From: Escherichia coli
GTDB lineage: Bacteria; Pseudomonadota; Gammaproteobacteria; Enterobacterales; Enterobacteriaceae
Length of the DNA: 64,000 nt
Assembly: GCF_024298765.1 (NCBI RefSeq)
Contig: NZ_CP101210.1
Strand: one strand, 5' to 3'
Below are positions 10,873-33,074 of this stretch, piece by piece. The notes under the pieces were generated by a model that was not told where the DNA came from, did not search any database, and saw only the letters and a program-made list of their open reading frames with translations. The first letter of the stretch is position 1; each line of letters opens with the position of its first letter. The translations under genes and the position numbers were made by a program.

Positions 10873-10899
10873 TTGTGCAAATTTGTGCACTATTGTGCA
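10873..10899 (+). promoter_or_regulatory. three direct TTGTGCA repeats at 10-bp spacing with a nearby TATAGT; candidate operator/promoter of the cargo operon
   Basis: TTGTGCA at about 10873, 10883 and 10893 (a fourth copy near 10801); TATAGT at about 10904; about 80 nt upstream of the cargo ATG. Confidence 0.35.
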
Positions 10900-10978
10900 T
10901 TTGTATAGTGAAAAAAATATAGCAGAAAGTATACTTAGCGCCTTGTGGGCTACGTTAACTTTGCAGGAACATTTGGAA

Positions 10979-12358
10979 ATGAAAAAAATCAATAAAGAAG
11001 ATTCTAAAAGAACCTTTTTACGTGGATGGTTGCGATTTCTTCGTAGCGTTGAGAGAGCTAAGAAAAAAAAGCCTGCGCAAGAGAAAAATGGTAGTCTTCG
11101 TTTTTCCGATGAAACAACTCCTGTCCAAAACCAAGTCGCTACGTTCATTGAAAATATATCGATTATAAAAGAGTATGACTCATCAATTCTTCGTCGTGAC
11201 GCAGAGAAGATATTAATACCTAAATATTTTGACTTATATGACAATCCAGAGAAATCTCTGCTATTTATTAGTGCAGCCACAAAATTAATTGCAAGAGGTA
11301 AATGGAAATCATATATTTTTGATTACAAGAAAAACAAAAAACACTGTCTTGGTCTTGAGTGTCTATTAGGTGTTGCTCTTACAGCAGCAAGGCAAAGTAA
11401 TATAAATTTCAAAGATACGATGATTCAGATTAATGGTATCTACCCTAAAGATGAACAGTATCTTGAAATTATCAGGGATGTCGGGCTTGTAAAAGAGATT
11501 AGTAATGCTGCACCAGGTAAAGTTCTGGACTCTACTGAAGCATCGAAAAAAGCGAATCCGAAGAAACGAATCTTCTCTGCTGATAGTATCGGAAAGGAGA
11601 ATGCTTCTGCCTTTGCCCATGACAGAAAAAATGTCACTGCTGAAAAATTTACCGCATACATAAACGAATGCTTAAATGATCATAATTTAAAACTTGTACA
11701 TGAGGCAGAAAAGCATTTAACTTCCTGCATGGGGGAACTCCTTGATAATGCGGAGCGGCATTGTGGGTTAGAGCAACGCCCACGCTGGTATTTGAGAGGT
11801 TTTGTTAATAATAACGTACGAAACCCCATATGTGAGTTGGCTGTTTTCAATTTTGGGAAAACTATCAGCGAAACTTTTGATAATTTACCTGAGGATCATT
11901 TTTCATTAAGTCAACAAGTTAATCCATACATAAATAAGCATATTAAGAAAAAGGGTATGTTTAAGGAAGGATTAACAACAGTAGCGGCCTTGCAAGGGCG
12001 GGTGAGTTGTAAAAACGAGAAAGAAACTGACAGTTCTGGCACCGGAACAATTGAATTATTGAAGTTATTTCAAGATATGCATGATAATCTTAAAAAAATG
12101 GGAAGAGATATTAAAGGTGGGATAAAAATGACTTTAATATCTGGTAGTACTCATATTAACTTTGATGGATCATATAAATTAAAGCAAAGGTTGGTTAATG
12201 ACGAGGAAAGTGACATTTTTACTTACCCTTTTAATGATGTAGGGCTTGAATCTGAACCGGATCGCAACTATCTTAAGCGTATGAAGGATGCTCGATTTCC
12301 TGGAGTTATGATCAATATTCGTTTTCCTCTACCAGAAAACGCCACCCAGCGAACTTGA
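10979..12358 (+). CDS. cargo gene 1: GHKL-type ATPase / anti-sigma-factor-kinase-like protein, 459 aa from ATG 10979
   Basis: N-box-like ELLDNAERHCG, possible degenerate G1 (FNFGKT) and G2 (SSGTGT) boxes; AT-rich; AGGAA 8 nt before ATG; the track start at 10883 is a TTG. Confidence 0.6.
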   Translation: MKKINKEDSKRTFLRGWLRFLRSVERAKKKKPAQEKNGSLRFSDETTPVQNQVATFIENISIIKEYDSSILRRDAEKILIPKYFDLYDNPEKSLLFISAATKLIARGKWKSYIFDYKKNKKHCLGLECLLGVALTAARQSNINFKDTMIQINGIYPKDEQYLEIIRDVGLVKEISNAAPGKVLDSTEASKKANPKKRIFSADSIGKENASAFAHDRKNVTAEKFTAYINECLNDHNLKLVHEAEKHLTSCMGELLDNAERHCGLEQRPRWYLRGFVNNNVRNPICELAVFNFGKTISETFDNLPEDHFSLSQQVNPYINKHIKKKGMFKEGLTTVAALQGRVSCKNEKETDSSGTGTIELLKLFQDMHDNLKKMGRDIKGGIKMTLISGSTHINFDGSYKLKQRLVNDEESDIFTYPFNDVGLESEPDRNYLKRMKDARFPGVMINIRFPLPENATQRT

Positions 12359-12368
12359 GGACAGGTAC

Positions 12369-12713
12369 ATGAAAATGGCTGACATCACCATAGATTTCAA
12401 TAAGTTAGTAAAAGATAGTAACAAGAAACTTTTTGCTGGACGTTCTAATGGGCGCCAGGCCTATGATTACTTTAATATAGGGAAATTTTGCACAACCAGT
12501 AATGATAGATTATATCTATTGATCCCCAAGGGAATTGTTGTATCAAGCTCATACTTTCTAGGTATGCTTGAAACGGTTTTGCCGAAATTTTCTTCGCCTA
12601 GCGAATTTTATAGTCGCACTGTACTTGATGGTCGTGAATATAAAGAAGGTATGCTTTCTGAATTAGATAGAGCTGTAAGGAGAGGCTTACATAAAAATGT
12701 TCCCTTCTTTTAA
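12369..12713 (+). CDS. cargo gene 2: small STAS-like (anti-sigma-factor-antagonist-like) protein, 114 aa
   Basis: GAGGA 8 nt before ATG, overlapping the stop of gene 1; segment LLIPKGIVVSSSYFLGMLETV recalls the SSSF-type STAS-like signature. Confidence 0.55.
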   Translation: MKMADITIDFNKLVKDSNKKLFAGRSNGRQAYDYFNIGKFCTTSNDRLYLLIPKGIVVSSSYFLGMLETVLPKFSSPSEFYSRTVLDGREYKEGMLSELDRAVRRGLHKNVPFF

Positions 12714-13506
12714 AAATATTTTTCAAATCAAAATGACAGCGCTGTCTGTCATTTTTTTTATATTCCCCGCAGCTTGCTCTGTGACAGATTTTTCCAATAA
12801 AGAAAACATTGAATGTAATGAGTCACTTTATCCAAACACGCCTTTTTATATTTCCGATTCAGGACTTAGTGGTATATCATCACCGTTTTTGTTATCCGGA
12901 AACCCGAATGATGGCTTGATGTTTTGTGAAAAGGCAAACGACACCTTTCATAAGTTATCTCTGGCAAGGGATAACAAAAAAGATTTATTTACTAATTATT
13001 TCAAAGATGTTCCAAATTCCTATGATATATATAATATTGTAAAGGTTCCGGAAAATGGTCCAGAGTGGATTTCTATTGGCATCTCTTTATTTGCTTTAGT
13101 TTCATCCTTTGTTATTCCTTGTGTTCAACATAGAAAAGAACGTAAAGAAGCTATTAATGAAGGGTATTGGGTAAGAGAAGTAATTATGCCTAAAATTAAT
13201 GGGTTGGCATTCGATGTTGTGCAAAGTTTTAAAAACTCCATGGCATTATCAGAAGAGGAGTTTCTTAGTGTATTCAGTAATACTCTTTTACCAAAACTAG
13301 GAGAGTTACGGGATTCATTATATTTGTTTAATAGTTTTCCAGAATTAAATGCAGATATTGAAAATCTAGAAAGTATTTGTGACTCCTTGGAGGAAGAAGT
13401 TTCCAATCATATAGACTCGCCTAATGAAATAAGAATTTCTGATATATCAATGTTTCATTCCAAATTAATACAGAAATTAATTTTACTTCATAAGAAGATA
13501 GGTTGA
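12697..13506 (+). CDS. cargo gene 3: membrane protein, candidate effector (N-terminal signal/anchor, one internal TM, acidic C-terminal domain)
   Basis: Overlaps gene 2 by 17 nt; hydrophobic N-terminus TALSVIFFIFPAAC and TM WISIGISLFALVSSFVIPCV; AT-rich. Confidence 0.6.
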   Translation: MFPSFKNIFQIKMTALSVIFFIFPAACSVTDFSNKENIECNESLYPNTPFYISDSGLSGISSPFLLSGNPNDGLMFCEKANDTFHKLSLARDNKKDLFTNYFKDVPNSYDIYNIVKVPENGPEWISIGISLFALVSSFVIPCVQHRKERKEAINEGYWVREVIMPKINGLAFDVVQSFKNSMALSEEEFLSVFSNTLLPKLGELRDSLYLFNSFPELNADIENLESICDSLEEEVSNHIDSPNEIRISDISMFHSKLIQKLILLHKKIG

Positions 13507-13551: not shown

Positions 13552-16344
13552 CTATCGTGTTCGATGCAATAAACTGATTTTTTTGCGAGCATGTTTAGTG
13601 GTTTCACTGATTCTCTGTGCGTGCTCTGCGTCGCGGATGGCGCGCAGCATGTCAGAAAGTACGGTAACGGGTGTTTTCATGGTGTTCTGGTCTTGCTGAA
13701 GTGTGGATGCCAGGCGTGCGGCGGCTTCAGGGTCTGATGCCTCTAGTTGTTCCAGATAGCTGGCGACCGGGTTATGGCGGATCTCCGTGCTGCTTACGCC
13801 GTGATTACGACTCAGGCGTTGCCAGAGCTGCGTGATTCGGCTGTCCGGGCGGGTATCCTGTTTGCGTACAATTTCAAATCCCTGCGGTGCAATGATGCTG
13901 CCGCCAACGTACAGACTGCCGCCTCGTAACAGGTGCTGCATCTGCTGTTCACCGATATGCAGGCCGAGAGATTCAGCAGACTCCCGCCATTCTTTAGCGA
14001 GTAACTCGTGGTTATCAGGCAAAGGCTGTGGCTGTTTGCGGCTCTGTGTCCAGTTCTGCATTTCATCACTGCTGTTTTTTGCCTGTTTGTCACGCAGCGA
14101 ACGCATCAGTGCCCGGCGTTCGTGCCGTTTCAGTGAGCGCATCCATTCATTCACGTCAACGCCTTCAGGAAGCCGCGGCCACGGTGCTGGCCGTTCTTCC
14201 GGCTGTTCTGTCCCGTTGTTGTCCGTTTCCTGTACACGGGGACAGTTATTGCCACGAGTCCAAGGGGCGGCAGGGCCGCCCTGAAGGTCAAAACCATTTT
14301 CGCGGGCGCTGTCTTCCGTTTCCGGTTTACGTCTTACCAGTTTCCAGTTATCCGGATGCGTGCACACACGGGAGGATTCCCCGATGAGTGGTGACCAGAT
14401 CCCGTAAATCTGTACGCTCTGTTCGCCGTAATCATTCAGCTCATCTGCGAGGTCGTAGGCGGTGCGAATCAGGTAGTCTTTGCGTGGAACAAGTACGCCG
14501 CCCTGTTTTTCAATGTAGGTGGCAAAACACCCGGCATCGGCGGCAGCGAGTACCGCATCCATTGCGTCATCTTTCAGTCGTTGCGGGCCTTCCGGGTTGC
14601 GTGCCATCTGGCTGGCAAGGCGGCGCAGTTCACGCCACACCTGACGGGAGGGGATGCCAAAGAACTGGAACTGGCGGACCCGATGAAGGCGCGCCCAGCC
14701 GATGGCGCGCTCCACACTCTCGGCCATTGATTTTCCGGTTTCGTGGTCAACGCGTGGCTTGCCCGTTTTCGGGTCGATGCCATCCACGGCGCGGCTGTCC
14801 AGGTTCTTTCCGATGTAGGTCGCGATATAGCTGGTTGGTGTGCCTTTTGAGCCGTCGACATACTCCGCCTTAAAGCGCGGAGTAATATCATTGCCCAGCT
14901 CGTGGCGGTCTTCCTGAATGGCAATATCGCGGGTGATGGCCACGATGCTGTCGATTTCTTCCGGATGAGCAAAGACCATCATATGCCAGTGCACGGTGCC
15001 GTCATGGTGAGGCTCCACCGTGCGGATGCCATACCAGCGAAGACCGTCGCGGTTCAGTTTTTTGCGGACCGCCGCAAAAAACGTGTTAACCAGGTAATCG
15101 CTGGAGTCGCGCATGGTGGCCCCGTTCCATTTGGGATTCGGATGACCGTTCTCTGTTGTGGCGTGGTATTTTGACGGGCAGGTGACAGTCAGAAACACCG
15201 CTTTGTCGCCACGGGCTTCGGCCAGAAGTTCCAGCCCCTTCATGGTGGCCATCATTTCTGCCTTACGGTGAACCGGGTTACTTACTCCCGCGTAATACAC
15301 CGTCTCGAGATCAATCGTGAACCCGTCTTCGTTTTCCAGCATGAAACTTTTCAGGAAATCGCGTGTTTTCTCGCGCTGTGCGCGAAACTCGCTTAACGCG
15401 TCCTGGCTCAAATAGGGCGATGTTTTTCTGGAAACCAGACAGGCGGCGCGGAGTTGTTCTTCTCTCCACTCGCAACGTAACAGCCACAGTTTGCGTTTCC
15501 ACCATTCCGCACAGGTCAGGCGAAGGATTGCGCCCGGCAGCAGTTCTGTGTCCGGTTCGTTCCTCCGGTCTTTGTCTGTTGTCAGTGCGTCATAATGCGG
15601 AGGCATGGCGTGCAAGTGTAACGCCATGCGGGCCAGCATCTGATACGCCTTCAGCGTTACATCCATGGTCAGCTCGCCATCGGTCGCGCCAAAACCATCG
15701 CAGAGTTTTTCGAAGGTGCTGCTGAACATCGCCGCCGTCATGGTGGCCAGCGTCTGTATCTGGTGTTTGTTGAGTTGCGGCAGGTAAAGCAAATCGTCCA
15801 GGCGTTCACGTCCGGCAAGGGACCGATAACCCGGTGTCAGCCAACGGCTGTCGGTGCGGTCCAGACGTACGAATATTTTGCGCAGGGTTCCGCGCGCGTA
15901 GCGTTCAGCCTGCCAGCTCTTTTTGCCTTTCTGACGATCGGATTCCTGTTTTTTGCGCAGGAAAGAGAGGTGGCGGCTCAGAGGTTCACGCAGATAAACG
16001 GGAAGCACCTTCAGTGTGGCAAAAGCACGGGCCACCGGGTCTTGTTCTGTTGCCTGACGCTTGCTGATGATGCTTTGTGCCAGCTTTTCACGCTGTCCGG
16101 CTTCCTCAAGGGATGCCATGAGTTTTTTACCCACGGTGGATTGTGCGAAAAAGGCTTCCTCCTTCGCTTCCTGTTCTTTCCGGGCCTTTTTGTCCGCCTC
16201 AAGGTAGTAACGGATGGCGCGTTGCAGCTCGGTTTCAGTTTCCTGCCTGCGCTCCGTAAATCTGTCCGGATCAATGGCTGGCCGTGGTTCATTCCAGCTC
16301 CATGCAAACTCACTCATGGCTGGTATCCCGTCACGCGCTGCCAC
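13552..16344 (-). CDS. replication initiation endonuclease (P2 gpA-like, rolling-circle HUH type)
   Basis: 930 aa with HWHMMVFAH HUH-type motif; position between early genes and cargo as P2 A. Confidence 0.8.
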   Translation of the reverse strand: MAARDGIPAMSEFAWSWNEPRPAIDPDRFTERRQETETELQRAIRYYLEADKKARKEQEAKEEAFFAQSTVGKKLMASLEEAGQREKLAQSIISKRQATEQDPVARAFATLKVLPVYLREPLSRHLSFLRKKQESDRQKGKKSWQAERYARGTLRKIFVRLDRTDSRWLTPGYRSLAGRERLDDLLYLPQLNKHQIQTLATMTAAMFSSTFEKLCDGFGATDGELTMDVTLKAYQMLARMALHLHAMPPHYDALTTDKDRRNEPDTELLPGAILRLTCAEWWKRKLWLLRCEWREEQLRAACLVSRKTSPYLSQDALSEFRAQREKTRDFLKSFMLENEDGFTIDLETVYYAGVSNPVHRKAEMMATMKGLELLAEARGDKAVFLTVTCPSKYHATTENGHPNPKWNGATMRDSSDYLVNTFFAAVRKKLNRDGLRWYGIRTVEPHHDGTVHWHMMVFAHPEEIDSIVAITRDIAIQEDRHELGNDITPRFKAEYVDGSKGTPTSYIATYIGKNLDSRAVDGIDPKTGKPRVDHETGKSMAESVERAIGWARLHRVRQFQFFGIPSRQVWRELRRLASQMARNPEGPQRLKDDAMDAVLAAADAGCFATYIEKQGGVLVPRKDYLIRTAYDLADELNDYGEQSVQIYGIWSPLIGESSRVCTHPDNWKLVRRKPETEDSARENGFDLQGGPAAPWTRGNNCPRVQETDNNGTEQPEERPAPWPRLPEGVDVNEWMRSLKRHERRALMRSLRDKQAKNSSDEMQNWTQSRKQPQPLPDNHELLAKEWRESAESLGLHIGEQQMQHLLRGGSLYVGGSIIAPQGFEIVRKQDTRPDSRITQLWQRLSRNHGVSSTEIRHNPVASYLEQLEASDPEAAARLASTLQQDQNTMKTPVTVLSDMLRAIRDAEHAQRISETTKHARKKISLLHRTR

Positions 16345-16703
16345 TCCTGCGAGAAGAGGGTGGAAAGGCGGTTAAATTCAGCGGTGTATTCACTCAGCGA
16401 GGCACACCCGCCAGCAGTGTGATGCGCCAGCATTGCCGCAAATACGGAGGTCGGGGAGTCGTAATACGCCAGCAGTGATTCGCCATGCGGTGTCAGGCAG
16501 CGCAACGCCAGCCCGTGTGGTGTTAAGTCCACGCGGTAGCAGTCGTCTACTGTGAAATAAAGGGTGTCTGCATTCTCCGGTTTTGTAGTGCGTGCTCTGT
16601 TGTCACGACTACGGATGTAGAGATCAAATAATCCCTGAAGAACGGGAGCCAGACGGGTGTCCTGTGTGCGCACCCATCTTGTGAAGTCATGAGCGTCAAT
16701 CAT
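16314..16703 (-). CDS. hypothetical phage early protein
   Basis: 129-aa ORF immediately upstream of A on the same strand, overlapping its start. Confidence 0.5.
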   Translation of the reverse strand: MIDAHDFTRWVRTQDTRLAPVLQGLFDLYIRSRDNRARTTKPENADTLYFTVDDCYRVDLTPHGLALRCLTPHGESLLAYYDSPTSVFAAMLAHHTAGGCASLSEYTAEFNRLSTLFSQEWQRVTGYQP

Positions 16704-16811
16704 GCTGCAATTCTCTCTACTAAGGATGTGCGAAGGCTTCCTGCCAAAAAACTCAGAAGCGGTCGGTTACAGGAATTGGCGTTCTACGAGTAGTTATTGC
16801 TGGCTTGAGGT

Positions 16812-17030
16812 TCATTTCTGTTTAATTCCGTGCATGCTGTAGAAGAAATCAAAAGTGCTATCTATGCGTATCATGAGCTCACGCTGTATCGCTTCTGGTG
16901 TTTCTGGTTCACCTGGCGAGCCAACTCCCGCGAAGAAATCACCGATCTCGCTTTTAATAAGTGCCTTTAGCGTTGCTGAGGAATTCAGGTGTGTGCGGTG
17001 ATGTTTGCGAGTGATTCTTCTCCTGCTCAT
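16812..17030 (-). CDS. hypothetical phage early protein
   Basis: 72-aa ORF in the early operon; overlaps the upstream ORF stop by 4 nt. Confidence 0.45.
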   Translation of the reverse strand: MSRRRITRKHHRTHLNSSATLKALIKSEIGDFFAGVGSPGEPETPEAIQRELMIRIDSTFDFFYSMHGIKQK

Positions 17031-17230
17031 TTGCGTGGATCCTGTACCTGTCGGATAAGATTCACCCGCGCCACATTAGTGGCGCAGAAGTAAGTACCGT
17101 CAGTGAGATAGATGTGGTGTGCATCCTTTTCTGAGCGGTGTTTGTCGATTGTGGTAATCAGGCGTTCGTCGACTTCGTATTCACGTCCTCTGGAAGTGAA
17201 ACGAACGACAGGAAAATGCTTAATTGCCAT
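17027..17230 (-). CDS. hypothetical phage early protein
   Basis: 67-aa ORF in the early operon. Confidence 0.5.
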   Translation of the reverse strand: MAIKHFPVVRFTSRGREYEVDERLITTIDKHRSEKDAHHIYLTDGTYFCATNVARVNLIRQVQDPRK

Positions 17231-17317
17231 TACACCTCCTGGGCGTGTGCGAATACCTCCGCGAATGCGGATTGTTTTTACATTTTCTTATTTAACCTAG
17301 GGTTTTTATTTGCGCTG

Positions 17318-17431
17318 TTATTCGCCAGTGAAAAAGCGGTCAATCTTTTTTACTGAACGAATAATTCGCATAATCCCAATGGCGCAGACCACCGAAATAA
17401 TCAGAACAAGCCATGAGATAAATATACTCAT
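17318..17431 (-). CDS. small hydrophobic membrane peptide (37 aa)
   Basis: ATG at 17431 overlaps the stop of the upstream ORF (ATGA); MSIFISWLVLIISVVCAIGIMRIIRSVKKIDRFFTGE is a single TM helix with a basic tail. Confidence 0.35.
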   Translation of the reverse strand: MSIFISWLVLIISVVCAIGIMRIIRSVKKIDRFFTGE

Positions 17432-17670
17432 GCAATATTCCCCAGCTTATACGGTTCAATATGCTCCCCGCATTCTGCGGCACAGATCAGCTCGGAAAGT
17501 TCGTTAAGTGCATCCAGATCATCAGCGTAAAAAGCCACGTCATACAGACTCCGGATTGCCCTGGTTAATGAGTCACGGGCTGCACGTTCAGCATGAGTAC
17601 CTGATGCACTTAAGCGAAAATAAAAACGCTCAAGTGCTTTGTTTATGAGAGTCTTATATTCTTTGCCCAT
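17428..17670 (-). CDS. hypothetical phage early protein
   Basis: 80-aa ORF in the early operon. Confidence 0.5.
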   Translation of the reverse strand: MGKEYKTLINKALERFYFRLSASGTHAERAARDSLTRAIRSLYDVAFYADDLDALNELSELICAAECGEHIEPYKLGNIA

Positions 17671-17682
17671 CGCAACGCCCTT

Positions 17683-17959
17683 TAATCTGCTTTCTGAATT
17701 TCAGCTTCTGAATCCATGCAGATAATTTCGATATAGGGTTCATCGCCATTAACCTGACGAGCTTTTTCAGCTTCGTTAATTATTTCGCGAACGGTCTGGT
17801 ACGGAAGTTCTACTGTCAGGCGCGTACCGTTCAGATAAACGTAGGTAGCTGCATTTTTTCAGATGGAACTACTCCGTCAATAGCTGATGCGCGTAATAAC
17901 AGTTCACCGCGAAAATCAATAAAGCGGATAAATACACCTTGTGCATGGTCTTTAGTCAT
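17683..17959 (-). pseudogene. small early gene (about 92 aa if repaired) interrupted by a 1-nt frameshift in an A6/T6 run
   Basis: ATG at about 17959 gives 41 codons then stop; an out-of-frame continuation with no start codon runs to TAA at about 17683; adding one A in the homopolymer near 17854-17859 joins them. Confidence 0.4.
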
Positions 17960-17969
17960 AAAGCACCTG

Positions 17970-18320
17970 TTATAAATCAGCCTGTTTAATAAAACTTTGC
18001 CCGCGAAGCAAACGATCGACTGTGCGCAGTGCTTCGTACAATGTAAAATCCTGCCCGAACTGATTATCGCCGTTGCTTAATGCAAAAATGCGGTTTCCGG
18101 TAAACGGATTGCGTGAGCATCTGTGAACCACTATTCCAGCTTTCTCAATCAGCCAGGTGTGTTCGCCGATTTGTTTTACAGCGTGCCCATCTGGTGTTGC
18201 GTGCGTCTCGTTCAGGTTATAGCGATTGTTACTACGTGATGCACTGGTAGCGACGTGGTGTATATGGCGTTCTACGCCATTACGAAATTTGGAGTATGGA
18301 TTATTAGCGTGTTTTTTCAT
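17970..18320 (-). CDS. hypothetical phage early protein
   Basis: 116-aa ORF in the early operon downstream of the cox-like gene. Confidence 0.5.
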   Translation of the reverse strand: MKKHANNPYSKFRNGVERHIHHVATSASRSNNRYNLNETHATPDGHAVKQIGEHTWLIEKAGIVVHRCSRNPFTGNRIFALSNGDNQFGQDFTLYEALRTVDRLLRGQSFIKQADL

Positions 18321-18341
18321 GATGATGCTCTGTTCATTGTT

Positions 18342-18545
18342 TTAGCTGTTAGCCAAAGCGTCTTTTAACATCGCCACAAGGTTTACTTCAGGCTTTTCCA
18401 TTTTGGCACGTTTGGGGCGGATAATAATTCGACCGTCAGCCAACATCTTTTTGCATGTATTAAGAGGGATACCTGTTATCTCTGCATATTTCTGCAGGGA
18501 TACATAGGGGGCATTCACATTGATATTGATGGTTATACCTGACAT
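18342..18545 (-). CDS. Cox-like small DNA-binding protein (excisionase/early regulator)
   Basis: 67 aa; YVSLQKYAEITGIPLNTCKKMLADGRI resembles the Cox-type helix-turn-helix pattern; position in the early operon. Confidence 0.55.
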   Translation of the reverse strand: MSGITININVNAPYVSLQKYAEITGIPLNTCKKMLADGRIIIRPKRAKMEKPEVNLVAMLKDALANS

Positions 18546-18561
18546 CCCACTAGCCTCCTGA

Positions 18562-18768
18562 TCAGGAAGATTTGTTTTGTTCTTTCTGGGTTAGCTCTAG
18601 GCCGCGAAGGAAGATCATGCGCGCCATGTTAGAGGATGAGCGTTGTTCTTTAGTTGCCATTTCATCAATGACGGCTCGCTCTTCGAGGGACAGCCGAAGT
18701 GCCAGTCTTGGACCTGTGGCGGTGTTACGCGGAATGCGTGATCTGGTATCGTGAAGAACTTGTTTCAT
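18562..18768 (-). CDS. small ribbon-helix-helix-like regulator, first gene of the early operon
   Basis: 68 aa with RLALRLSLEERAVIDEMA; divergent from the repressor gene. Confidence 0.45.
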   Translation of the reverse strand: MKQVLHDTRSRIPRNTATGPRLALRLSLEERAVIDEMATKEQRSSSNMARMIFLRGLELTQKEQNKSS

Positions 18769-18843: not shown

Positions 18844-19248
18844 ATGAAAAATGATATTGGTCAGCGGTTGCGTGAGGAAAGGGAAAGATTGGGGCTTAGT
18901 CAAGTTGCTATGAGCGAAATTGGTGGAGTCAAAAAGCTAACTCAGCTTAGATATGAGAAAGGAGATAGCTTTCCTGATGCTGCGTATTTGGCAGCGCTGT
19001 CTCGTTTTGGCCTTGATGTTCAGTATGTTGTGTTGGGAATTCACTCACCTGAAACTTATAACGATGATGAGCAGGAGTTGATTACTCGCTTTCGAGCAGC
19101 TTCGTTAGATGTAAAAAACGCGGTGATCGGGGCTTTAAAAAGTGCGGGCAGTGAAAAGGAAACTCAGCCATCAGGGCGTGAGTTAAATATTTCTGGTGGT
19201 AATAACCGTATCGCTGGTCGTGACTATAACGAAACTAAGGGTAGGTGA
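18844..19248 (+). CDS. immunity repressor (CI/C-like, HTH XRE family)
   Basis: 134 aa; N-terminal LREERERLGLSQVAMSEIGGVKKLTQLRYEKG helix-turn-helix; divergent from the early operon. Confidence 0.75.
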   Translation: MKNDIGQRLREERERLGLSQVAMSEIGGVKKLTQLRYEKGDSFPDAAYLAALSRFGLDVQYVVLGIHSPETYNDDEQELITRFRAASLDVKNAVIGALKSAGSEKETQPSGRELNISGGNNRIAGRDYNETKGR

Positions 19249-19263: not shown

Positions 19264-19914
19264 ATGGCCGTCAACTCAAACGGTTCAAACAATCGCGTTG
19301 CTGGGCGTGATTTTCACGAAAAGAATATTCAGATAGAGCGATATGATGGTTCTCATACCGTCAATATCGCAATCCCTTCGAATAATGATGATGACGCTCG
19401 CCCTTTGCTTAAGGCACAGCGTAAGGAGCTAAATAGCTTGGTTGCTGCTATTGCAGAAGCTAGCAATACTGAAGCGTTTATTATTTGGCAAAAAGTACAT
19501 GCGGAGATTGGTGTAGCTGGTATTGATGATATGACAATAAATCAATATAAAACAGCGGAGAGTTTTCTGCATGCAATGCTTGAGCGATGTAAAGATCATG
19601 ATGCCTGTAAGACTCTTGTAAGTTTATTACTACGTAACAGTGAAGACTGTGGACTTCGACAAAAACTTCTGCGGTATTGCCATATCAATTTCGGTACAGG
19701 ACGTTTAAACGATCTTACTCGTTCTCAGTTACAGTCTGCATTGTCGTGGTTAGAGCAACAATCGGTATCAAGCCACACAGAGAATTCGACCTTACCAGAA
19801 GTCCGCCTTCGTGCTTCAGAATTAATCCGATTTTATCCAAAAGAAATAATATTCTTTATCTGCGTAGGGGTTTTGGTAGGCGGAGCCATTTCTAGGATGT
19901 TTTTTAATTTGTAA
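19264..19914 (+). CDS. moron protein with C-terminal membrane anchor, unknown function
   Basis: 216 aa; GGGAGG 6 nt before ATG; AT-rich; C-terminal TM IIFFICVGVLVGGAI; lies between repressor and integrase. Confidence 0.55.
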   Translation: MAVNSNGSNNRVAGRDFHEKNIQIERYDGSHTVNIAIPSNNDDDARPLLKAQRKELNSLVAAIAEASNTEAFIIWQKVHAEIGVAGIDDMTINQYKTAESFLHAMLERCKDHDACKTLVSLLLRNSEDCGLRQKLLRYCHINFGTGRLNDLTRSQLQSALSWLEQQSVSSHTENSTLPEVRLRASELIRFYPKEIIFFICVGVLVGGAISRMFFNL

Positions 19915-19943
19915 TCTTACTTGAGCTAAATTGAGGCAATGAC

Positions 19944-20291
19944 ATGAAAGTAAAAAAGGTTCAACTATTAGTTGCTTTTTTATCTATGTTTTCTTTTTCC
20001 GCCGTCGCAATGCCTTTTAAAACTATTGAACGTGAGAGTTTCAATGGAGTATGGCCATTTAATACAGATGAGGTTCAATTGCAGTGTCTTGATGGTAATC
20101 CTTATGTGATGAATTTTGACGATAATAAGTTATATGCGCTTACAGGTTTGGCTCGAATAAAAGGTAAAACATTTGGTGCGTTACCGTTAGATAACAATAA
20201 TCCATTTTGGCTAGATAATGATGCCGCCCCTGGGTTAAAAAAGAATCTGGGGGACGTCACTAAGGCTGCATTTGATTTATGTGATAAGTAA
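19944..20291 (+). CDS. secreted/periplasmic moron protein, unknown function
   Basis: 115 aa with signal peptide MKVKKVQLLVAFLSMFSFSAVA and two cysteines; AT-rich. Confidence 0.55.
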   Translation: MKVKKVQLLVAFLSMFSFSAVAMPFKTIERESFNGVWPFNTDEVQLQCLDGNPYVMNFDDNKLYALTGLARIKGKTFGALPLDNNNPFWLDNDAAPGLKKNLGDVTKAAFDLCDK

Positions 20292-20296
20292 CAAAG

Positions 20297-21298
20297 ATGT
20301 CGGTTCGTAAGATTCCATCAGGTAAATGGCTTTGCGAATGTTATCCCTACGGAGCATCGGGAAAACGCATTCGTAAACAGTTTGCGACAAAAAGTGAGGC
20401 GCTCTCTTATGAGCGCCGTTTAATGAATAGTAGAGTTGGAGACGAGTTTCAAGATGGTTCTGGTCCTCGTCTTTCTGAGTTGATTGCTCGTTGGTTTGAG
20501 ATGTACGGCAAAACCTTGTCCTCTGGTGCAGAGCGCAAAGTCAAACTTGAGGCGATTTGTTCTAGGCTGGGAGATCCATTTGCTTCTCAGTTTGACAAAA
20601 ATATGTTTGCTACTTATCGGGAAAGAAGGCTATCAGGAGAATGGAATCCCAAGGGGAAGAAAAAACTTAGTGAAGCAACCGTTAATCGCGAGCAGTCATA
20701 TCTACATGCTGTTTTTGCCGAACTGAAGCGCCTTGGGGAGTGGTCTGGTGAAAACCCCCTGACTGGAATTCGCAAGTTTCGTGAGGAAGAAAAGGAGCTG
20801 GCGTTTCTGTATGTAGATGAGATTGAACGCCTTTTGATTGCGTGTGATGAGTCACGGAATAAAGATTTGGGGGTTGTTGTCCGTATTGGGCTTGCGACTG
20901 GTGCTCGGTGGAGTGAAGCAGAAGGATTAAAGCAATCTCAAGTACTGCCCGGTCGAATCACATTTGTTAAAACTAAAGGAAAGAAGAACCGCACTGTACC
21001 GATTTCACCTCAATTGCAGGCTATGCTTCCTAAAAAACGAGGAGCGCTATTTTCACCATGTTATGAGGCTTTTGACGCTGCAATTAAGAGAGCGAAGATA
21101 GAGCTCCCTGATGGGCAATTAACTCATGTGCTACGTCACACGTTTGCTAGTCATTTTATGATGCGGGGCGGAAATATTCTTGTGTTGCAAAAAATACTGG
21201 GGCATAGCGATATAAAAATGACTATGCGTTATGCGCATTTTGCTCCGGGTCATTTAGAGGCTGCTGTTGAATTAAACCCTTTTGACAATAGAGGGTAA
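20297..21298 (+). CDS. int: tyrosine-type site-specific integrase
   Basis: 333 aa; C-terminal HVLRHTFASH...ILGHSDIKMTMRYAH catalytic R-H-R-Y pattern; next to the att/tRNA fragment. Confidence 0.9.
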   Translation: MSVRKIPSGKWLCECYPYGASGKRIRKQFATKSEALSYERRLMNSRVGDEFQDGSGPRLSELIARWFEMYGKTLSSGAERKVKLEAICSRLGDPFASQFDKNMFATYRERRLSGEWNPKGKKKLSEATVNREQSYLHAVFAELKRLGEWSGENPLTGIRKFREEEKELAFLYVDEIERLLIACDESRNKDLGVVVRIGLATGARWSEAEGLKQSQVLPGRITFVKTKGKKNRTVPISPQLQAMLPKKRGALFSPCYEAFDAAIKRAKIELPDGQLTHVLRHTFASHFMMRGGNILVLQKILGHSDIKMTMRYAHFAPGHLEAAVELNPFDNRG

Positions 21299-27133: not shown

Positions 27134-28123
27134 ATGCACAAATTTACTAAAGGCCTGGCAGCCATTGGTCTGGCAGCCGTTATGTCACAATCCGCTATGG
27201 CGGAGAACCTGAAGCTCGGTTTCCTGGTGAAGCAACCGGAAGAGCCGTGGTTCCAGACCGAATGGAAGTTTGCCGATAAAGCCGGGAAAGATTTAGGGTT
27301 TGAAGTTATTAAGATTGCCGTGCCGGATGGCGAAAAAACATTGAACGCTATCGACAGCCTGGCTGCCAGTGGCGCGAAAGGTTTCGTTATTTGTACTCCG
27401 GACCCGAAACTCGGCTCTGCCATCGTGGCGAAAGCGCGTGGCTACGATATGAAAGTCATTGCCGTGGATGACCAGTTTGTTAACGCCAAAGGTAAGCCAA
27501 TGGATACCGTTCCGCTGGTGATGATGGCTGCGACCAAAATTGGCGAACGTCAGGGCCAGGAACTGTATAAAGAGATGCAGAAACGTGGCTGGGATGTCAA
27601 AGAAAGCGCGGTGATGGCGATTACCGCCAACGAACTGGATACCGCCCGCCGCCGTACAACGGGTTCTATGGACGCACTGAAAGCTGCAGGATTCCCGGAA
27701 AAACAAATTTATCAGGTACCTACCAAATCTAACGACATCCCGGGGGCATTTGACGCTGCCAACTCAATGCTGGTTCAACATCCGGAAGTTAAACATTGGC
27801 TGATCGTCGGTATGAACGACAGCACCGTGCTGGGCGGCGTACGCGCGACGGAAGGTCAGGGCTTTAAAGCGGCCGATATCATCGGTATCGGTATTAACGG
27901 TGTGGATGCGGTGAGCGAACTGTCTAAGGCACAGGCAACCGGCTTCTACGGTTCCCTGCTGCCAAGCCCGGACGTACATGGTTATAAGTCCAGCGAAATG
28001 CTTTACAACTGGGTAGCAAAAGACGTTGAACCGCCAAAATTTACCGAAGTTACCGACGTGGTGCTGATCACGCGTGACAACTTTAAAGAAGAACTGGAGA
28101 AAAAAGGTTTAGGCGGTAAGTAA
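27134..28123 (+). CDS. araF: L-arabinose ABC transporter periplasmic binding protein
   Basis: Starts MHKFTKGLAAIGLAAVMSQSAMA (signal peptide) at internal Met of the track ORF. Confidence 0.9.
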   Translation: MHKFTKGLAAIGLAAVMSQSAMAENLKLGFLVKQPEEPWFQTEWKFADKAGKDLGFEVIKIAVPDGEKTLNAIDSLAASGAKGFVICTPDPKLGSAIVAKARGYDMKVIAVDDQFVNAKGKPMDTVPLVMMAATKIGERQGQELYKEMQKRGWDVKESAVMAITANELDTARRRTTGSMDALKAAGFPEKQIYQVPTKSNDIPGAFDAANSMLVQHPEVKHWLIVGMNDSTVLGGVRATEGQGFKAADIIGIGINGVDAVSELSKAQATGFYGSLLPSPDVHGYKSSEMLYNWVAKDVEPPKFTEVTDVVLITRDNFKEELEKKGLGGK

Positions 28124-28192
28124 TTTGCCGGAAAGATTCCCCTCTGCATGATGCAGAGGGGGTGTGAACGACCAGTGATTCACGGAGACGTT

Positions 28193-29707
28193 ATGCAACA
28201 GTCTACCCCGTATCTCTCATTTCGCGGCATCGGTAAAACGTTTCCCGGCGTTAAGGCGCTGACGGATATTAGTTTTGACTGCTATGCCGGTCAGGTTCAT
28301 GCGTTGATGGGTGAAAATGGCGCAGGAAAATCAACTCTCTTAAAAATCCTCAGCGGAAACTATGCGCCAACCACGGGTTCTGTAGTGATTAATGGGCAGG
28401 AAATGTCCTTTTCCGACACGACCGCAGCACTTAACGCGGGGGTGGCGATTATTTACCAGGAGCTGCATCTCGTGCCGGAAATGACCGTCGCGGAAAACAT
28501 CTATCTCGGCCAGCTGCCGCATAAAGGCGGCATTGTCAATCGCTCATTGCTGAATTATGAGGCGGGTTTACAACTTAAACATCTTGGTATGGATATTGAC
28601 CCGGACACGCCGCTGAAATATCTCTCCATTGGTCAGTGGCAGATGGTTGAAATTGCCAAAGCCCTGGCGCGTAATGCCAAAATTATCGCCTTTGATGAGC
28701 CAACCAGCTCCCTCTCTGCCCGTGAAATCGACAATCTTTTCCGCGTTATTCGTGAACTGCGAAAAGAGGGGCGGGTGATCTTATACGTTTCTCACCGTAT
28801 GGAAGAAATATTTGCCCTCAGCGATGCCATCACTGTCTTTAAAGATGGACGTTATGTCAAAACCTTTACCGATATGCAGCAGGTTGACCACGACGCCCTG
28901 GTGCAGGCGATGGTCGGGCGCGACATCGGCGATATCTACGGCTGGCAACCGCGTAGTTATGGCGAGGAGCGGCTGCGTCTTGATGCTGTGAAAGCACCAG
29001 GCGTACGTACGCCAATAAGTCTGGCGGTTCGCAGTGGTGAAATTGTCGGTCTGTTTGGTCTGGTCGGGGCAGGGCGTAGCGAATTAATGAAAGGCATGTT
29101 TGGCGGGACGCAAATCACCGCCGGTCAGGTTTATATCGACCAACAGCCGATCGATATTCGTAAACCGAGCCACGCCATTGCCGCAGGCATGATGCTCTGC
29201 CCGGAAGATCGCAAAGCGGAAGGCATTATTCCCGTGCACTCCGTTCGCGACAATATCAACATCAGTGCCAGACGTACACATGTGCTCGGCGGTTGTGTAA
29301 TCAACAACGGTTGGGAAGAAAACAATGCCGATCACCACATTCGTTCGCTCAACATCAAAACGCCGGGCGCTGATCAACTGATCATGAATCTCTCAGGCGG
29401 AAATCAGCAAAAAGCCATTCTGGGCCGCTGGTTATCGGAAGAGATGAAGGTCATTTTGCTGGATGAACCTACGCGCGGCATTGATGTTGGTGCTAAGCAC
29501 GAAATATATAACGTAATTTATGCGCTGGCGGCGCAGGGTGTGGCGGTGCTGTTTGCCTCCAGCGACTTACCTGAAGTCCTCGGCGTTGCCGACCGGATTG
29601 TGGTGATGCGGGAAGGCGAAATCGCCGGTGAATTGTTACACGAGCAGGCAGATGAGCGTCAGGCACTGAGCCTTGCGATGCCTAAAGTCAGCCAGGCAGT
29701 TGCCTGA
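28193..29707 (+). CDS. araG: L-arabinose ABC transporter ATP-binding protein
   Basis: Two ABC cassettes (GENGAGKST Walker A, LSGGNQQK signature); start [10 protein letters not shown]. Confidence 0.9.
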
Positions 29708-29721
29708 GTAAGGAGAGTATG

Positions 29722-33074
<3,353 letters not shown>

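Follow-up and report, generated by a model that had tools for sequence, protein, structure and literature searches.

A long-form gpA-type replication initiator with its origin inside the gene in a P2-like prophage of Escherichia coli

Why is the putative replication initiator of a P2-like prophage in Escherichia coli so much longer than the corresponding protein of phage P2? The question is raised by gene A of a prophage located in a 64-kb stretch of E. coli DNA, referred to here as the window, by which we mean the whole stretch that was analysed. On the minus strand of the window, the open reading frame (ORF) at 13552..16344 comprises 930 amino acids (aa) when counted from its GTG codon. This is the length given in the first-pass annotation, and the motif HWHMMVFAH on which that annotation had remarked is indeed present, at aa 443-451 of the 921-aa product described below. 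The size of about 760 aa given there for P2 gpA was also accurate, since the P2 record AF063097 annotates the gene at 28034..30319, corresponding to 761 aa. Two explanations had been offered for the difference, an additional domain or an over-called start, along with the expectation that a replication origin should be located within the coding region.

The ORF is not a chance reading frame, since its match to the Pfam family PF05840 (Phage_GPA) is far above the cut-off (437.7 bits against 31.4, E 3e-131) and covers profile positions 1-321 of 321. PHROG 91 (phrog_91, 'nicking at origin of replication'), a profile of 852 positions, matched over aa 8-915 with an E-value of 9.9e-270. RefSeq contains the same 921-aa coding sequence, labelled 'replication endonuclease', from a genome in which the neighbourhood is also the same, and a 100% identical copy is carried by the IMG/VR locus L017. 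Searches with the whole protein yielded no NCBIfam model and no sequence relative among solved structures, while a fold comparison of the catalytic region gave weak matches to the HUH proteins Helitron transposase and adeno-associated virus (AAV) Rep, none with E <0.001. The coding sequence and its catalytic motifs are as follows.

13552..16317, minus strand: gene A, gpA-type HUH rolling-circle initiator, 921 aa plus stop, the best-supported coding sequence
15172-15195, minus strand: motif 1, FLTVTCPS (aa 375-382)
14965-14991, minus strand: HUH motif, HWHMMVFAH (aa 443-451)
14803-14829, minus strand: two-tyrosine motif, YIATYIGKN

The phiX174 gene A protein and other superfamily I HUH Reps combine an HUH metal site and two catalytic tyrosines with an origin located in the gene for the initiator. 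The same features recur here. Motif 1, the HUH motif and YIATYIGK all align with P2 as invariant columns, in agreement with the suggestion that gene A encodes an A-type HUH initiator; H443, H445, F375, T377 and T379 are invariant with P2, and Y497 and Y501 occupy invariant columns aligned with Y450 and Y454 of P2 (YIAKYISK at aa 450). We are thus highly confident that gene A encodes a gpA-type (superfamily I HUH, two-tyrosine) rolling-circle initiator of an E. coli P2-like prophage, with a length typical of its lineage and an origin inside the gene. A catalytic role for Y450 and Y454 of P2 is credited in PMC3986222 to Odegrip and Haggard-Ljungquist 2001.

We located the extra length by comparing the segments between invariant anchor residues in an alignment with the A proteins of PhiR44_2, a Klebsiella phage and the P2 type, which are 97%, 43% and 31% identical to the gene A protein, respectively. 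Relative to P2 gpA, the differences were:

Start to W8: -21 aa
W8 to P106: +66 aa
Y497 to Q549 (insertion DPKTGKPR): +8 aa
G785 to end: +94 aa
Remaining small changes, summed: +13 aa
Total, gene A versus P2 gpA: +160 aa

The additional-domain explanation is therefore the one that stands, the increase consisting of an N-terminal helical hairpin (+66 aa), a C-terminal tail (+94 aa) and small insertions. A protein of this size is common. The nearest database clusters contain proteins of 910-946 aa named 'replication endonuclease', one of which (P0001, 946 aa) has 16,881 member sequences, and a 6.3-kb query around gene A gave a megablast match to at least part of its length in 1,450 of 5,426 complete E. 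coli genomes. Lengths within the family ranged from 597 to 946 aa among the A proteins compared, with Burkholderia phage PK23 at 597 aa, 186 at 694 aa, BIS20 at 738 aa, Yersinia phage YenM_201.16 at 759 aa, P2 at 761 aa, Vibrio phage Kappa at 800 aa, the Klebsiella phage and Cartapus at 804 aa, Yersinia phage YenM_42.18 at 925 aa and PhiR44_2 at 946 aa. The length of gene A is genuine, normal for its lineage and annotated in thousands of genomes. Gene A is an ordinary, already annotated and very common long-form gpA of a kind already known; 910-946 aa should not count as anomalous in this very common E. coli prophage lineage, and the basic picture of P2-type replication is unchanged.

The start codon accounts for little of the length. 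Three features at the 5' end of the gene bear on its position.

16318..16344, minus strand: nine over-called codons, from GTG 16344 to the ATG, within the 129-aa ORF upstream; the ATG is the start used in relatives and in RefSeq
16314..16317, minus strand: ATGA stop/start overlap with the upstream 129-aa ORF (16314..16703); the same overlap is annotated in relatives
16276..16305, minus strand: N-terminal peptide AWSWNEPRPA (aa 5-14), with W8, P11 and A14 invariant in 16 sequences from several clades including P2

GTG 16344 sits within the upstream ORF, and the sole AGGAG abuts this codon with zero spacer. ATG 16317, nine codons downstream, is the start annotated both in phage PhiR44_2 and in RefSeq (921 aa). 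Because of these annotations and the ATGA overlap, the product most likely starts at ATG 16317 and comprises 921 aa, 160 aa more than P2 gpA. According to the GenBank note for 186 (U32222), translation of A appears to need translation to the end of the upstream orf84, and by this precedent the ATGA overlap in gene A likely reflects translational coupling with the upstream ORF. The gene should thus be called from ATG 16317 (921 aa).

The first-pass suspicion of an over-called start was correct for these nine codons. Since only these are affected, it was rejected as an explanation for the length of the protein, and the remaining difference of 160 aa is genuine protein sequence. A more radical version, in which the long form is an annotation artefact and a normal A protein of about 760 aa is made from a downstream codon, is hardly credible. 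It can draw on the listed GTG start being indeed nine codons too early, but the in-frame candidate starts that follow ATG 16317, at codons 62, 67, 95 and 104, all lack a Shine-Dalgarno sequence. Moreover, all clades, P2 among them, have kept the peptide AWxWNxP (aa 5-14), which requires translation to start upstream of this peptide. The larger part of the excess is in any case located at the C-terminal end (+94 aa), and proteins of 921-946 aa are annotated in RefSeq and in phage records. No normal-length A protein starting downstream was found.

An origin was expected inside the coding region, as in P2, and was found at 14242-14281, in codons for a linker that is disordered in an AlphaFold2 model built from a 40-sequence alignment (mean predicted local distance difference test score, pLDDT, of 80). 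It comprises two elements, which are listed together with the linker.

14242..14264, minus strand (coding strand): origin nick motif CTTGGACTCGTGGCAATAACTGT, directly after a GC hairpin, identified by alignment with P2 and 186
14265..14281, minus strand: origin hairpin GGGCGGC cct GCCGCCC, immediately 5' of the nick motif, which folds as single-stranded DNA
14182..14316, minus strand: origin-carrying linker (aa 668-712), predicted to be disordered, with pLDDT <50 for aa 668-687 and 689-712

The nick motif CTTGGACTCGTGGCAATAACTGT encodes APWTRGNNC within the predicted disordered linker and is present as a single copy in the window, with 0 expected by chance. It matches CTCGGAGTCCTGTCAATAACTGT of P2, where GenBank puts the nick at 29892 within gene A; this position is the first G of CGG in GCGCCTCGGAGTCCTGTCAATAACTGT. 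The origin of 186 (28576) carries the same nick motif as P2. Conservation of the motif at the DNA level extends over 10 phages, whose hosts belong to 6 genera (Escherichia, Klebsiella, Yersinia, Salmonella, Vibrio and Burkholderia). In 7 of 7 pairwise comparisons, its 12-codon window ranked first or second in DNA conservation, on a par with the HUH motif. A run of 32 nucleotides (nt) at the origin is identical to that of the Klebsiella type, although the proteins are just 43% identical. Synonymous changes were depleted in the linker codons (aa 668-712) in most pairs, with synonymous substitution frequencies (dS) of 0-0.10. That the origin of P2 is located in gene A, with a nick sequence conserved among P2-like phages, is already known, since it is stated in PMC3986222 and PMC8537503; a literature text search for the P2 nick sequence itself returned unrelated papers only.

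Judged from its sequence, gene A thus carries an origin nick sequence within the initiator's own gene. By alignment with P2, the nick would be placed at or adjoining G 14261, on the strand suggested by P2. By analogy with P2, the gene A protein would nick one strand at the origin in its own gene, at about 14261, and become covalently joined to the 5' end via Y497 or Y501, leaving a 3' OH that would prime rolling-circle synthesis. A replication origin feature at 14242-14281 should be added to the annotation.

The hairpin next to the nick motif is a constant feature of these origins. A perfect stem of 5-7 base pairs, located 0-3 nt before the motif, was present in 39 of 39 distinct origin segments (representing 87 A genes; loci L002-L090), while such a stem occurred at 3.8% of control positions in the same A genes. 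The stem itself is variable, with about a dozen sequences that include GGGCGAC/GTCGCCC, GGACGGC/GCCGTCC, GCGCC/GGCGC and GGGCCG/CGGCCC. Among the nine sequences whose loop is 3 nt long, pairing was observed in 90.5% of cells, a value reached by 0 of 500 shuffles and by none of the slid controls, all of which were lower, and double-sided (compensatory) changes were observed at two stem pairs. The amino acids encoded by the stem change as reverse-complementary codon pairs (Gly/Ala, Asp/Val) in the linker predicted to be disordered, which argues that selection acts on the DNA and not on the peptide; the DNA structure would here dictate the protein sequence. A search of the literature for hairpins at the origins of P2-like phages, which did not extend to the P2 ori papers from 1993 and 1994, returned nothing relevant.

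Identity profiles divided gene A into four exchangeable parts, aa 1-100, aa 101-692 (the core), aa 693-907 (the tail) and aa 908-921 (the ending). The first of these was only 17-29% identical in several relatives that were >90% identical elsewhere. The ending stands apart from the gene body.

13555..13596, minus strand: last 14 codons, KHARKKISLLHRTR, part of an exchangeable cargo module and not of the conserved gene body

Homology to relatives with a ParM cargo falls away after codon 907 (exactly there in PhiR44_2, and likewise in CREC-591), and hence the exchange of cargo reaches into the 3' end of gene A. The last 51 nt of the gene have a GC content of 37%, as against 56% in the gene body, and resemble the low-GC cargo downstream. 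The same ending is present in P0004, which is 100% identical at aa 906-921.

Three independent exchanges had their junction at the origin core, either within the 32-nt core or at its 3' edge. The contigs concerned (L093-L095) were obtained by protein identity, and the set of IMG/VR loci contained no origin-junction recombinants. In L093 (3001-5778), the early region and the A core are of the 186/Klebsiella type, 82-84% identical to the Klebsiella phage, and from 8 nt before the GGAC of the motif the sequence is 100% identical to PhiR44_2, through the tail and into the ParM cargo. L094 (3001-5493; CP-933T type, 830 aa) and L095 (3001-5640; 879 aa) follow the window at 90-100% identity as far as the motif and diverge 23-24 nt beyond the GGAC of the motif. 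We tentatively propose that the 32-nt origin core serves as a recombination joint at which the A tail and the cargo are swapped between distant P2-like phages, by strand transfer or by homologous exchange, with the hairpin being kept as a DNA structure. The former route would be an initiator-catalysed strand transfer that starts at one origin and terminates at another in a co-resident phage, and the latter a homologous exchange in the sole patch of near-identity; both could fit the junctions, and the data do not separate them. A module boundary at the origin would help explain the exchange of the cargo region next to gene A in P2-like phages.

The remainder of the protein was mapped onto the AlphaFold2 model and the alignment.

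aa 1-29: disordered (AlphaFold2)
16051..16230, minus strand: N-terminal helical hairpin (aa 30-89), AlphaFold2 helices H30-59 and H61-89, pLDDT ~72-81
15418..16038, minus strand: helical domain (aa 94-300) common to all gpA proteins, most 10-residue pLDDT blocks >85, aligned with P2, 186 and the Klebsiella type
14323..15405, minus strand: catalytic region (aa 305-665), AlphaFold2 confidence mostly >85
aa 722-761: helices (AlphaFold2)
13798..14010, minus strand: compact C-terminal domain (aa 770-840) of two helices, three strands and one helix, pLDDT 81-88
13597..13797, minus strand: lineage-specific C-terminal extension (aa 841-907), helical, low to moderate confidence, missing in P2, 186 and Klebsiella-type A
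aa 841-920: helices with lower confidence (AlphaFold2)

The segment from W8 to P106 comprises 98 aa in gene A, 32 in P2 and 38 in 186, and the helical hairpin is the main N-terminal addition relative to both phages. The conserved peptide AWSWNEPRPA precedes it in a region that is predicted to be disordered (confidence <50) and may be a short docking motif. No Pfam family was found in the N-terminal 182 aa; these residues and the 229-aa tail gave sub-threshold noise (Death, LOB).

The C-terminal tail (aa 693-921) is situated after the origin, and about 94 aa of it reach past the short C-terminal domain of P2. The first half of the compact domain (aa 770-840) is common to P2. An exhaustive HMMER search with aa 693-921 recovered 24 representatives, nearly all of which were C-termini or fragments of gpA proteins. 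The relatives have in common a stretch of about 90 aa, G[LM]xLSxxQLxxLLRGxxL...RRKD..DRK...LW...H...S..IR.DPVG.Y..ML, which is 26-33% identical between distant clades and of which P2 and the Klebsiella type carry just the first half. The motif around IRHNPVASY recurs in the tails of several distant gpA proteins; the last ~55 aa, by contrast, are confined to the E. coli and Hafnia clade. Among members of the E. coli clade, the ratios of nonsynonymous to synonymous substitution frequencies (dN/dS) were 0.09-0.45 for aa 770-840 and 0.08-0.23 for aa 841-907, from small counts. Since these values are all <0.5, the tail appears to be under purifying selection and looks like a selected protein rather than read-through. 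It is not needed for catalysis, because the A protein of Burkholderia phage PK23 (597 aa) stops ~37 aa past the origin and has almost no tail.

Two side observations concern the tail. The 2,998-aa protein P0130 matched aa 145-185 of the tail query in nine short stretches (E 2e-11), which may be a repeat or low-complexity coincidence. On two contigs (L096:1325-1603 and L097:1536-1814), a 92-aa ORF corresponds to the gpA C-terminal domain alone, and the preceding 1.3 kb contain no A core; the ORF is what remains of a prophage or else an independent form of the C-terminal module.

With an artefact of the start set aside, the explanations that compete for the tail differ in whether its protein has a function and in where it came from. 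The one that we favour, though as a rather doubtful proposal, is that the tail is an accessory protein-interaction module, acting in oligomerisation or in recruitment of the host helicase or replisome. This role is a guess, since the tail matched no Pfam family, PDB sequence or known fold. The same searches are compatible with a different reading, according to which the tail is kept mainly as DNA, be it a spacer, origin-flanking sequence or a recombination substrate for cargo exchange, and its protein is functionless. Tail modules differ greatly in length, down to nearly nil in PK23, and recombine at the origin and together with cargo, as this reading would have it. It is nevertheless unlikely given the motif-rich domain of ~90 aa kept at 26-33% identity in distant clades, the dN/dS values <0.5 of the tail segments and the compact fold that AlphaFold2 predicted for aa 770-840 (pLDDT 81-88). 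Even less probable is an origin of the tail as a formerly separate downstream gene, fused to A by loss of a stop codon in this lineage or genome. The position of the tail behind a disordered linker, its exchange as a module and the 92-aa ORF on the two contigs that lack an A core over the preceding 1.3 kb would all suit a fusion. However, the A proteins of P2, of the Klebsiella type and of many further phages end, in the same frame, with the first half of the C-terminal domain, the intact long form is present in very many genomes and nearly all matches to the tail are themselves gpA C-termini or fragments thereof, while the stand-alone ORF may be a prophage remnant.

Some observations weigh against the overall interpretation of gene A as a lineage-typical gpA initiator with a functional tail. 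The Shine-Dalgarno sequence ahead of ATG 16317 is weak (GGGA), and for this reason the start at ATG 16317 relies on overlap and conservation. For this gene, nicking, covalent attachment, cis action and the start codon are predictions from the sequence. In the tail, AlphaFold2 confidence for aa 841-921 is 54-74, the domain and fold searches named above gave no match, and the dN/dS values are based on very few substitutions.

P2 gpA (AF063097) belongs to the same Pfam family and has the same motif 1, HUH and YxxxY motifs; its gene has the nick motif in the corresponding position, behind a short GC hairpin, and is likewise the last gene of the early operon, adjoining a variable cargo region. P2 gpA differs in being 31% identical and in having neither the N-terminal helical hairpin nor the last ~94 aa of the tail, and its nick motif differs at 4 positions (CTCGGAGTCCTGT versus CTTGGACTCGTGG). 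P2 also has gene B, whereas none was recognised in this prophage. The A protein of 186 (U32222, 694 aa) is a member of the same family, with an origin placed in the gene by similarity to P2, and is shorter at both ends, with 38 aa from W8 to P106 and 19 aa after G785.

The replication endonuclease of E. coli prophages and Escherichia phage PhiR44_2 (946 aa; cluster P0001; RefSeq 921-aa WP_032419532.1) is 96-97% identical over aa 1-907 and has the same start, modules and origin. It has a different end after codon 907, and the cargo downstream of it consists of ParM and a stability protein versus a three-gene low-GC cassette here. The gpA of Klebsiella phage ST15-OXA48phi14.1 and Escherichia phage Cartapus (804 aa) is 43% identical and has an N-terminal helical insertion; its 32-nt origin core, CGCCCCTTGGACTCGTGGCAATAACTGTCCCC, is identical to that of gene A. 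It differs in the tail, which has 43 aa after G785 versus 137 in gene A, in the stem (GGGCGC tt GCGCCC) and in the early operon, which is 186-like.

Gene A is the last gene of the early operon, with Cox-like and Arc-like genes, the repressor-like gene and the putative integrase on one side and, in near-identical genomes, cargo followed by portal and terminase genes on the other. The early operon (16314-18768, minus strand) contains the Cox-like gene, the Arc-like gene and five further ORFs without an assigned function. Neither tblastn nor PHROGs revealed homologues of P2 gpB or of the 186 early proteins in it, and none of the early ORFs had a PHROG replication annotation; the P2 gpB query of tblastn matched nothing in the prophage, and its best hit, elsewhere in the window, had an E-value of 0.068. 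As no gpB homologue was recognised, the module would work like P2 A but not as a P2-type A and B pair. The N-terminal hairpin and the C-terminal tail are candidate determinants of host-factor use in a lineage with no recognised P2 gpB. No tRNA gene was found anywhere in the window.

Between the portal gene and gene A, the variable cargo slot is occupied by a three-gene cassette (10883-13506, plus strand) that encodes proteins of 491 aa (459 aa in RefSeq), 114 aa and 269 aa, has a GC content of 35-37% and is present in 22 complete E. coli genomes. Searches of Pfam, PADLOC, NCBIfam and PDB sequences gave no match to the cassette, and a weak match to phrog_3364 was the only hit; we consider it a candidate accessory or defence module. 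On the other side of the early operon, at 19264-20291 on the plus strand, two ORFs of 216 aa (phrog_5825, together with a weak membrane-protein match) and 115 aa (phrog_2950), with a GC content of ~41-44%, are located between a repressor-like gene (18844-19248) and a 333-aa ORF (20297-21298) that is taken to be a putative integrase from its position. This segment may represent a second cargo slot.

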